Source: an uncultured Bacilli bacterium (GTDB taxonomy: Bacteria > Bacillota_I > Bacilli_A > RF39 > UBA660). From it: a DNA stretch of 64,000 nt. Shown one piece after another: positions 22,846-25,069 of the stretch (its first letter is position 1; every line of letters starts with the position of its first letter). The notes under the pieces were generated by a model that saw only the letters and a program-made list of their open reading frames with translations, did not search any database and was not told the origin of the DNA. The DNA lies in NCBI GenBank assembly GCA_947626095.1, contig CANQQV010000003.1:1-64000 (forward strand). Reading direction: 5' to 3'. Both the position numbers and the translations under genes were made by a program.

Positions 22846-22923
22846 ATGATTAAATTAATAAATAAACTTATTAATCTCATATTTATCCTTTTATTCGTAA
22901 TAATATTTTTATTATTTAGATAA
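22846..22923 (+). CDS. Small hydrophobic peptide MIKLINKLINLIFILLFVIIFLLFR (25 aa), putative type I toxin
   Basis: SD AAAGGCGGTG 5 nt before ATG, single TM-like segment, structured 5' UTR and a convergent structured RNA. Not in the ORF track. Confidence 0.65.
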   Translation: MIKLINKLINLIFILLFVIIFLLFR

Positions 22924-23020
22924 AAAAGGCATCTCTCTAAGGTTACTTAGAGCGGATGTCCAACCTTGGAAGGACATTTGGCAACAACAAATGTGTCATT
23001 TTTTATGACTTTCCTTCTCT
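22922..23020 (-). ncRNA. Structured small RNA, copy 1 (putative antitoxin)
   Basis: Extended -10 TGcTATAAT (TATAAT at 23027-23032), three-way junction core 22969-23017, then a terminator hairpin with U6. Confidence 0.65.
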
Positions 23021-23058
23021 ATTTTTATTATAGCATATAAGATAATTTTTTAAAACAA

Positions 23059-24270
23059 TTATTTTAGGTATTTAATTGTAAATGTTGTTCCTTTATTTAG
23101 TTCTGATTCAACGGTAATATAGCCATTATTTTTTTCAATAATTGTTTTTGCTAATGATAAACCGATACCTATGCTATCTTTGTTAGAATTTTCACCTTTA
23201 TAAAATCTTTTAAAAATATTTTTTAAATCTTTTTCACTCATTCCTGTTCCATAATCCGTAATAACTATTTTAGTAAATAAATCATTTGTGGTATAAACTA
23301 TATCAATCTCACCATTCTCTTTCGAATGCTCTAGACAATTTTTTAATATATTAGTTAAAGCTTCAACTTGCCATTTATAGTCACAATTAATTATAGATGA
23401 TTTCGAACCATCTATCTTAATTTTAATATTTTTTAAATCACAAATAGCATCAACGTTACTCACAACTTCATCTATCATTTTTCTTACTTTAACACTTTCA
23501 TTTTTGTAAGTAATCGCATTAGCATCAAACCTCGATAAAGTAAGTAAAGATTGAATCAAAAAAGTAATATTACTAATTTTATGACGAATATTAAGAAGTA
23601 AACTTTCCTTTTCTTTCGATGTTAAATTATCATTTTCAATTAAGTTATCAAGCATTAGATTTATGGATGTTAAAGGTGTTTTAATTTGATGAGAAATATC
23701 GCTTAAAGAATCTTTTAATAATTCTTTATCTTTTTTAGATAATCTTTCTTTTTCATTTAAAATAACCGCCGTTTTATATAATTCATTTTTTAATAATGAT
23801 AATTCATCTTCTTTATTAGTATCAATATTTAAGGAATAATTTTTGTTATTAATTTCTTGTAAGTAATTTAATAGTTTTCCAATATTTTTTGCTTTGTGAT
23901 ACTGATATATTTTAATGATAGAAATAATGATAATAGAAAAGATTAATAAAGTTATTAGATTGCTAATTATTATTTGTTTAGTAATGGTTTGATTAGCCAC
24001 ACTTATGGCGTTATCTTTTAGTTCAATACCATATTTAGTTAAAATATCTTGTTTATTTAAATCTTGAGCATTTAAAGATTTTATTATTTCTTCTTCTGAT
24101 ATTTCTGGATACTCTTCTTTAACATTATTAATGATATGAGAAATAATAATATTTTCATTAGTATTATACTTTTGTAATAAATTAACCGTTATTAAAGAAT
24201 TTATAACTAAAGTTATAAGTGAAATTAGTATTATAATAATTATAGTTTTTTTAAATGTTTTATCTTTCAT
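23059..24270 (-). CDS. Sensor histidine kinase
   Basis: Two TMs, DISHQIKTPLT, NILKNCLEH, DYGTGM, FKRFYKG and GIGLSLAK. Confidence 0.95.
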   Translation of the reverse strand: MKDKTFKKTIIIIILISLITLVINSLITVNLLQKYNTNENIIISHIINNVKEEYPEISEEEIIKSLNAQDLNKQDILTKYGIELKDNAISVANQTITKQIIISNLITLLIFSIIIISIIKIYQYHKAKNIGKLLNYLQEINNKNYSLNIDTNKEDELSLLKNELYKTAVILNEKERLSKKDKELLKDSLSDISHQIKTPLTSINLMLDNLIENDNLTSKEKESLLLNIRHKISNITFLIQSLLTLSRFDANAITYKNESVKVRKMIDEVVSNVDAICDLKNIKIKIDGSKSSIINCDYKWQVEALTNILKNCLEHSKENGEIDIVYTTNDLFTKIVITDYGTGMSEKDLKNIFKRFYKGENSNKDSIGIGLSLAKTIIEKNNGYITVESELNKGTTFTIKYLK

Positions 24271-24910
24271 CCGAATCAATCCTATAACCTATTCCTTTAA
24301 GAGTAATTATTATATCTGTTTGTAATTTTTCCCTAATTCTTTTTAGATAAACAGTTACTGTATTATCATTTACATCATTACCGGTCCATTGCCATATACT
24401 ATCAATAATATTCTCTCTAGTAACAACTTTATTTAAATTAGTAAACAATAATAAAAGTATTTTTAATTCTAAATTAGTCAATTTAACTTCTTTATTATTT
24501 TTATATACGGTCATTTTATCAAGATCAAAAGTTATATCTTTTACTTTTATAACATTATTTTTTTCTTTATGTAAGATGATTTTATTTAATCTTAATAATA
24601 ACTCTTTAGCATGGAATGGTTTAGTAACATAATCATCAGCACCAAGTTCTAAAGATTTAATGATTGTTTCTTCATCATCTTTAGCAGTTAAGAAAATAGT
24701 TGGAATACTTTTTTTACTTATCTCTTTTTCATAATAATCTAAGCCATTACCATCAGGTAAAGTAATATCTAAAATAAGGGCATCATAATTATTATTTAAA
24801 TCGATACCTTTTAGATTAGAGGCAGTATCAACTTGGTAATCATTTTCTTTTAAAAATAAAGAAAGATTACTAGATATATCTTGATCATCTTCAATGATTA
24901 ATACTTTCAT
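24260..24910 (-). CDS. OmpR-family response regulator
   Basis: IIEDD, LDITLPDGNG, GADDYVTKPF and winged-helix TVTVYLKRIREKL...GIGYR. Confidence 0.95.
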   Translation of the reverse strand: MKVLIIEDDQDISSNLSLFLKENDYQVDTASNLKGIDLNNNYDALILDITLPDGNGLDYYEKEISKKSIPTIFLTAKDDEETIIKSLELGADDYVTKPFHAKELLLRLNKIILHKEKNNVIKVKDITFDLDKMTVYKNNKEVKLTNLELKILLLLFTNLNKVVTRENIIDSIWQWTGNDVNDNTVTVYLKRIREKLQTDIIITLKGIGYRIDSDER

Positions 24911-24939
24911 TTTAGACCTCCTCTACTTTATTTTTAGAT

Positions 24940-25040
24940 AAAAAAACATCTGAATTAGCTTAGCTAATAAACAGATGTCCTTACAACGGAAGGACATTTG
25001 GAGAAAGCAAATGTGTCATTTTTTATGACTTTCCTTCACT
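24940..25040 (-). ncRNA. Structured RNA, copy 2 (leader/attenuator of the two-component operon or orphan sRNA)
   Basis: Core 24989-25037 is 45/49 identical to copy 1. It has its own TGaTATAAT (TATAAT at 25046-25051) and terminator ACATCTG...CAGATGT followed by a U-tract, upstream of the regulator SD. Confidence 0.65.
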
Positions 25041-25069
25041 ATTAAATTATATCATAAAGATAAATTATT

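Follow-up and report, generated by a model that had tools for sequence, protein, structure and literature searches.

Paired small RNA genes around a two-component operon of an uncultured gut Bacilli bacterium as predicted antitoxins of a new type I toxin–antitoxin family

In Bacillus subtilis, txpA and RatA are convergent type I toxin–antitoxin (TA) genes that overlap at their 3′ ends, and in hok/Sok and aapA1/IsoA1 the antitoxin pairs near the 5′ end or the translation-initiation region of the toxin mRNA. In the par system (fst/RNAII) of the Enterococcus plasmid pAD1, direct DNA repeats give both RNAs complementarity at their 5′ ends and the terminator is bidirectional. The concept of orphan antitoxins, or anti-addiction modules, comes from type II systems. 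For bsrG/SR4, also of B. subtilis, a loop–loop first contact of SR4, promoted decay of the bsrG mRNA and an added effect on the sequestration of the Shine–Dalgarno (SD) sequence have been reported (PMC3834814). Long-distance 5′–3′ interactions and anti-SD motifs are named as key determinants of type I toxin mRNAs in the T1TAdb publication (PMC8594479), and according to PMC12390103, Proteobacteria, Firmicutes and Tenericutes are the only groups in which type I systems are known. The present analysis concerns two copies of a small RNA (sRNA) gene flanking a two-component system (TCS) operon in the window, that is, the 64,000 nucleotides at positions 1 to 64,000 of contig CANQQV010000003.1 (assembly GCA_947626095.1) from an uncultured Bacilli bacterium. 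We read both copies as antisense antitoxin sRNA genes of a new type I TA family, copy 2 being an orphan, with the expression and the toxicity predicted; we put the probability of this reading at about 85%. Judged by its sequence, copy 1 is a complete module, composed of an sRNA gene and the gene of a putative 25-aa membrane peptide.

The repeat search revealed only one long direct repeat in 22600–25200, a 56-nt family (22968–23023 and 24988–25043, 51/56 identical, start-to-start spacing 2020), in line with the initial annotation, which had described two minus-strand copies 2020 nt apart. The four differences within the 49-nt core had been placed entirely inside a 7-nt loop, and the comparison of both strings agreed (minus strand UUGUUGC vs CUUUCUC); this loop sits in the second hairpin of the junction (the H3 loop). 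The promoter scan and the folding likewise confirmed an extended −10 promoter (TG), a three-way junction (3WJ) and a terminator in each copy, and the folding confirmed that the terminator interiors differ in sequence between the copies and keep their pairing in both. On the minus strand, the junction is built of GAAGG, a GUCAU hairpin, an ACAUUUG hairpin and CCUUC, followed by the terminator hairpin and a U-run. Both sRNAs have a minimum free energy of −28.4 kcal/mol as 3WJ plus terminator (z −3.5 and −4.0; 0/200 shuffles as stable). In the 1.6-Mb assembly, these are the only full copies according to BLAST and the first covariance model, R1.

The sRNA of copy 1 is predicted at 22924..23020 (−), about 97 nt, with the 5′ end placed from the −10 element, and includes the 3WJ (23017–22969), the terminator stem (about 22962–22930) and the U-run (22929–22924). 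Its promoter, TTTAAA-16-TATAAT with an upstream TG (23027..23054, −; 10/12 in the promoter scan), begins 5 nt past the stop codon of the histidine kinase (HK) gene and is conserved in copies of the relatives G404 and G413. The orphan sRNA of copy 2 is predicted at 24940..25039 (−), with the 3WJ at 25037–24989, an alternative 8-bp helix at 24997–24975, the terminator stem at about 24981–24947 and the U-run at 24946–24940. Its promoter, TTTAAA-17-TATAAT with TG (25046..25074, −; 10/12 in the same scan), is identical in G404 and G409, and its −35 element overlaps the last codons and the stop of the FtsX permease gene. As predicted transcripts, both copies are separate antisense sRNA genes with a promoter and a terminator of their own, as is the case in type I systems.

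The search for homologues was based on covariance models. Rfam gave 0 matches for the whole window at gathering thresholds and, for 22600–25200 at E ≤ 10, only chance-level matches (E 2.8–9.3), none of them on the repeats, so that the Rfam check proposed in the initial annotation assigned the repeats to no family. With the sRNA as the query, BLAST matched 174 of 401 genomes from the window's taxonomic family, mainly through the AT-rich promoter part, and was dropped as a homologue finder; a regular expression for the junction, run over 38 loci from the BLAST stage, returned only the window's own copies (three loci, L010, L011 and L020, were inspected). R1, a model of the junction, replaced BLAST; among 151 relatives, six further genomes of the genus matched it strongly. 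It yielded 21 copies at E ≤ 2.3e-4, distributed over the window and 13 of 15 stretches taken from seven same-genus genomes. The weak matches L085 (25.8 bits) and L086 (23.5 bits), which have no promoter, terminator or toxin open reading frame (ORF), were judged false and left out of the 21-copy counts. The second model, R2, was built from the 21 R1 copies and matched 16/151 genomes at E ≤ 0.001, none of them outside the taxonomic family of the window (15/90 other genomes of this family, 0/60 genomes of 23 other families), with up to 11 copies per genome.

The putative type I toxin is a 25-aa ORF (MIKLINKLINLIFILLFVIIFLLFR) at 22846..22923 (+), and homologous ORFs lie beside 17/21 sRNA copies. 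It is small (<60 aa) and hydrophobic (mean hydropathy 2.24), as type I toxins are, and has its own ribosome-binding site, the SD AAAGGCGGUGA at 22831–22841; its stop codon stands directly beside the sRNA U-run. In each of the 17 copies, the ORF is convergent, encodes 22–30 aa, has an SD and a mean hydropathy >0.9, and has its stop codon shortly beyond the sRNA terminator (+92 to +107, counted from the 5′ end of the sRNA). The sequences are otherwise strongly diverged and keep a common plan, in which an SD is followed by a peptide that is polar towards the N terminus, hydrophobic in its core and ends in K or R. The other four copies are a frameshifted toxin remnant (G401:C2), a remnant without a start codon whose sRNA has no terminator (G404:C29), at most a short, possible remnant (G421:C3) and copy 2 of the window, which has no toxin ORF and hence is not a complete system alone. 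A tabulation of downstream genes against adjacent small ORFs, suggested in the initial annotation, shows the antitoxin pattern, with remnants in three copies beyond the 17. In the wider set, 41/52 R2 matches pass the same automated ORF test, and one of the 11 misses sits at a contig end; at least 10 of these 52 share their contig or genome with the genus set, which makes the two counts partly dependent on each other. The copy without an intact toxin ORF in L077 (G421:C3:271000-276500; 2631–2691, −) is followed about 300–400 nt downstream by a candidate T-box leader, to judge by its motif.

The initial annotation had made its proposal depend on covariation of the junction stems in homologues, and these stems do covary. 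In the model-fitted alignment, 96.6% of cells are paired and 9/17 pairs are changed on both sides; 0/500 shuffles reach the observed percent paired, double-sided changes or covariation score, and controls with a slid register pair at most 51.2%. The closing stem takes the forms GAAGG/CCUUC, GGAAG/CUUCC, GAAAAG/CUUUUC, GGAAA/UUUCC and AAGGG/CCCUU, and alignment-free folds gave the full junction in 16/20 copies. Helix 3 (ACAUUUG/CAAAUG) is nearly invariant, its loop is the most variable part, and no intact copy lacks the promoter or the terminator. In RNAs of other genera, an A-rich linker joins a small hairpin with a GAAA loop to a longer helix 3, and a terminator follows; the 3WJ is therefore particular to this genus, and the family core is helix 3. 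Elsewhere in the window's genome lies a third, complete module that belongs to a second subfamily (contig C20:23792–23861, −, with about 300 nt downstream; L207), in which a GAAA-loop hairpin and a long GGAUACAUUUG hairpin take the place of the 3WJ and the toxin has 25 aa (MTRREASLYFIILLLFFIVITLLFG). Tandem arrays of modules are common, with spacings of 344–521 nt, as is typical of type I systems.

The range of the family was also approached with an exact-pattern scan of 185,579 species genomes, which returned 120 stretches. R2 matched 42 of the 80 stretches listed at E ≤ 0.01, and nearly all carriers among these are animal-gut assemblies labelled as uncultured Bacilli, Tenericutes or Erysipelotrichaceae. 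The remaining listed loci, mostly labelled as unrelated phyla (Flavobacterium, Chitinophaga and others), are taken as chance pattern matches. Two R2-matching loci, L124 and L102, come from assemblies labelled Muribaculaceae, another phylum than that of all other carriers. So far, the TA family is unannotated, and its known range is a single taxonomic family of uncultured gut Bacilli with small genomes. The full-text literature search found no paper on this TA family or on the lineage, and the family may be listed in T1TAdb. A type I TA family is thereby added for a large, uncultured lineage of Bacilli from animal guts, whose genomes measure about 1 Mb and in which gene callers miss both partners. 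The family can now be annotated by means of its covariance model, the GAYACAUUUG hairpin as conserved core and the toxin consensus.

The putative toxin promoter, TTTACT-17-TAAATT (22721..22749, +), was read by eye, is below the scan threshold and is not in the promoter scan list; it is weak (8/12) compared with the antitoxin promoter (10/12 plus TG), a difference typical of type I systems. All four toxin-bearing rows of alignment A5 keep both hexamers of the toxin promoter, except for one −35 change in one G404 copy, and the start of the toxin mRNA was placed from this promoter near 22755. Between this promoter region and a TGATATAAT-type promoter there is a perfect AT-rich hairpin at 22631–22661 (within 22608–22661); the TGATATAAT-type promoter serves the flavin reductase–rubredoxin gene and has 22/27 nt in common with the copy-2 sRNA promoter.

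The presumed 5′ leader of the toxin mRNA (22753..22792, +; inverted repeats I11 and I17) contains the sRNA strings AUGACACAUUUG and AGAUGCCUUU, and is predicted to pair with the 3′ untranslated region (UTR) of its own mRNA and with the SD. The presumed 3′ UTR (22924..23020, +) is fully antisense to sRNA copy 1, and read-through into it is expected because no U-tract follows the hairpin on the plus strand. As the 3′ UTR is antisense to the sRNA and the leader carries sRNA strings, the leader is complementary to its own 3′ UTR. In 18/18 modules, the leader has at this position a string of at least 10 nt in common with the sRNA, and a change in one is mirrored in the other (GACACAUUUG, GAUACAUUUGA, GAUAUAUUUGA). 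The leader/3′ UTR duplexes have energies of −27.6 to −38.4 kcal/mol vs shuffled means of −8.6 to −18.9, with 0/200 shuffles as stable in 19/19 modules. In the fold of the full 281-nt toxin mRNA (−79.2 kcal/mol, z −6.8), the 5′ end pairs with the 3′ end, and CCUUU of the leader pairs with the SD; in silico, the SD is thus sequestered together with 5′–3′ long-distance pairing, as in type I toxin mRNAs.

The predicted 5′ end of the toxin mRNA coincides with the start of another 25-aa ORF (MTHLADAFPL..., 22755–22832, +), which forms one 47-aa reading frame with the toxin in G404 and G409 and lies out of frame in the window. The possibility of a mok-like leader peptide was considered and rejected, as the start is TTG in 3/4 G409 copies, there is no start in other subfamilies and the frame differs between genomes; the conservation over this ORF is probably at the RNA level. 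The 47-aa frame of G404, comprising this upstream ORF and the toxin, had no homologue among 5.8 billion predicted proteins.

In copy 2 the toxin gene appears to have been lost by a small deletion, leaving an orphan antitoxin. The gene order in G404, with opposite-strand genes marked by their direction, is permease > sRNA > <toxin > RR > HK > sRNA > <toxin > flavin reductase, where RR is the response regulator, and the order in G409 differs from it in that the RR-HK-TA unit is present twice. In both genomes, the orthologue of copy 2 has a toxin gene between the sRNA and the RR. In alignment A5, the window matches G404 and G409 through the sRNA terminator and the last toxin codons, and at the scar (24926..24939, −) these codons (F-R-stop, + strand) are joined directly to the position 12 nt upstream of the RR SD. 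The distance from the sRNA start to the RR ATG is 128 nt in the window vs 386 in G404 and 387 in G409, so about 258 nt are missing, which held the toxin ORF with its leader and promoter and the upstream region of the RR. Copy 2 is identical to copy 1 over the junction stems and has 31 and 14 nt of contiguous complementarity to the copy-1 toxin mRNA; with identical stems it could pair with that mRNA, and the differing loop may block efficient initiation. In the tandem arrangement of G409 (L072, G409:C3:7000-19000, about 3080–8330), a TA module lies at every junction of the repeated RR-HK-TA unit and two modules stand 441 nt apart mid-way, which suggests that the TA repeats drive recombination. 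TA modules would then act as recombination substrates around the TCS operon, with a duplicated unit in one species and an orphan by deletion here.

The operon between the two sRNA genes (23059..24910, −) encodes, according to the domain search, an OmpR-type RR (Response_reg and Trans_reg_C, 24260–24910, −) and an HK (HisKA and HATPase_c, 23059–24279, −). Upstream lies an ABC transporter (25070..28501, −) with an ATPase (27827–28501) and an FtsX/MacB-type permease (25070–27826), and the transporter and two-component genes together presumably form a Bce-type module. Past the HK gene, the copy-1 sRNA gene follows at once, and its terminator is the first that a transcript of the operon would meet. 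A 410-aa mTERF-repeat protein (PF02536, E 1e-36) is encoded at 20682–21914 (−); G404 and G409 also have it, two genes away from the locus. Bacterial mTERF-domain proteins are not known to be common.

The position of copy 2 is what had led the initial annotation to consider a new riboswitch or attenuator class, in which copy 2 would be a cis-regulatory RNA gating the TCS through the terminator and a AUGUCCUU/AAGGACAU antiterminator, next to the option of an antitoxin paralogue with a different specificity loop. The layout itself was borne out: the copy-2 U-run ends 16 nt upstream of the RR SD (24923–24917; RR ATG 24910), the promoter scan found no promoter-like site between the terminator and the RR gene, and the junction fold is conserved and covarying. 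The 8-bp alternative helix also exists (24997–24975; 6 bp in copy 1) and is more stable in copy 2 than its shuffled controls (−11.2 vs −4.2 kcal/mol, 1/200 shuffles as stable, with at most 7/200 set as the limit), but its antiterminator role was an interpretation that the homologues do not bear out. The helix is absent from the minimum-energy fold of either copy, beats its shuffles in 8/9 of the closest, nearly identical copies and in only 1/12 diverged copies, and among the nine close copies varies in length with no compensatory change; conserved, covarying terminator and antiterminator helices are therefore not found. Only copy 2, 1/21 genus copies, lies in the 5′ leader of a co-directional gene, and the other 20 have a convergent toxin ORF or a remnant as neighbour; the G404 and G409 orthologues are parted from the RR by the opposite-strand toxin gene, and no Rfam family matches. 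As both testable features, the helix and the gene context, fail, the riboswitch or attenuator reading fails with them, and we consider it very improbable; the layout of copy 2 before the RR is due to the deletion and is not a conserved design. The second option is the one that the data favour, given the convergent ORF in 17/21 copies, the three remnants and the H3 loop as the most variable part. A promoter, a structured RNA and a terminator before a gene are thus no proof of a riboswitch, and homologues must be examined. Hardly credible, in our view, is a reading of the repeats as scars of duplication without function, or as a small mobile repeat, and of the small ORFs as chance frames: short hydrophobic ORFs arise easily in such very AT-rich DNA and the peptides match no known family, but ORF length, the polar–hydrophobic plan, the K/R end, the SD and the stop position are kept despite strong divergence, the stems covary, promoter and terminator persist in every intact copy, and leader and sRNA change in step.

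The orphan state of copy 2 could also be an artefact of assembly, the true genome carrying both modules complete, like G404. In favour of this, the bin comprises 34 contigs, has 7.9% contamination and carries two near-identical repeats 2 kb apart; however, the junction lies outside the 56-nt repeat with unique sequence on both sides, and the string shared at the junction is only a few bases, below any assembler word, so this explanation seems to us improbable. Five DNA runs contain at least half of the sampled words of 22700–25100, a measure of word content only that says nothing on the junction. If the deletion is real, a further consequence, compatible with the antitoxin reading and added to it, would be an exaptation in which the orphan gene is the only promoter of the TCS, its leaky terminator sets a low constitutive level to which ABC transcripts add, and the sRNA serves as a spare antitoxin and as a leader. 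There is no minus-strand promoter-like site between 25046 and 24910, so any RR-HK transcript must cross the copy-2 terminator, coming either from the copy-2 promoter or from the ABC operon. In G404, the segment deleted here is the one with the only promoter-like site upstream of the RR (TTTAAA-16-TAAAAT, L073 3793–3820), and the RR and HK reading frames of the window are intact. That G404 site, however, is a 9/12 match in a stretch that gave 4 sites vs 3.9 expected by chance, and may be no promoter; moreover, the copy-2 terminator looks strong (long stem and 7 U), and the operon may simply be poorly expressed. We therefore regard the exaptation as a tentative suggestion that more probably fails than holds.

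Several points weigh against the reading of the repeats as antitoxin genes of a type I family. Both the sRNA overlap and the 5′–3′ pairing rest on the promoter and terminator scan having found no terminator-like site on the plus strand, and the pairing needs an mRNA that reaches at least 23005, a length that follows from the same result. The leaders used in the duplex test were located by the shared motif, which inflates the test somewhat, and the covariation count was made on an alignment fitted to the covariance model. MAFFT with RNAalifold recovered helices 2 and 3 and the terminator, and paired the 5′ strand with the 3′ tail; it missed the closing stem, where the rows have slipped out of alignment. 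Five peptides compared with Pfam and NCBIfam gave nothing above the cut-off, the best E values (0.066 and 0.18) being to unrelated families. The search of sequencing runs for 22700–25100 gave no RNA run among the matches listed, and the deletion was seen in one metagenome assembly.

On the antitoxin reading, the strong extended −10 promoter of copy 1 would yield an excess of the ~97-nt sRNA from the minus strand, and the weak promoter would yield the toxin mRNA from the plus strand; with no terminator before the sRNA gene, the 3′ UTR of this mRNA would be the exact antisense of the sRNA. The first step may be a loop–loop contact of the sRNA with the mirror-image loops in the toxin 3′ UTR, for which the hypervariable 7-nt loop would be the specificity determinant, and zipping into a duplex of about 100 bp would follow. 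By analogy to the 3′-overlapping Bacillus systems, RNase III, the gene of which is present in the window's genome, would then cut the duplex and the toxin would not be made. The toxin mRNA would also lock itself, its first 40 nt pairing with its own 3′ UTR and with the SD; as a speculation, a leader displaced from the 3′ UTR might pair through GCCUUU with the SD AAAGGC. A bolder combination, which we hold to be doubtful, is that the leader mimics its own antitoxin and competes with it for the same 3′ UTR segment, that binding of the antitoxin frees the anti-SD GCCUUU, which then clamps the ribosome-binding site during duplex decay, and that the orphan gene is now both the promoter and the leaky terminator of a Bce-type TCS operon, a regulatory logic that would be undescribed for type I systems. 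Were it true, envelope-stress sensing would be tied to a TA RNA.

Compared with the described systems, the family is new, with no match in Rfam, Pfam, NCBIfam or the 5.8-billion-protein set, and it belongs to an already known kind, the type I TA systems. Like the orphan antitoxins of anti-addiction modules, copy 2 is an antitoxin gene without a cognate toxin; any cross-neutralisation may be blocked by the differing loop. With fst/RNAII the locus shares a convergent mRNA and sRNA meeting at a terminator and a small membrane peptide; the other features of the par type are absent, as the leader/sRNA repeats are inverted here (I11 and I17), so that the leader and sRNA strings are identical and not complementary, the U-tract is on the sRNA strand only, and no Pfam toxin family is matched. 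The similarity to bsrG/SR4 and txpA/RatA is closer, including a small hydrophobic toxin, a convergent sRNA antisense to the mRNA 3′ end and a partly sequestered SD. The family differs from them in having no sequence relationship to either (Rfam, Pfam, NCBIfam), a shorter toxin (22–30 aa), an sRNA made of a 3WJ and a terminator in this genus, an overlap that lies wholly in the 3′ UTR and a toxin leader that repeats sRNA strings. As in hok/Sok and aapA1/IsoA1, the toxin mRNA is predicted to be closed by 5′–3′ pairing with the SD hidden; unlike them, there is no conserved leader ORF, and the antitoxin is antisense to the 3′ segment with which the leader pairs, so that leader and antitoxin would compete for one site. 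An antitoxin-like leader and an orphan copy acting as an accidental leader would be two unusual traits.

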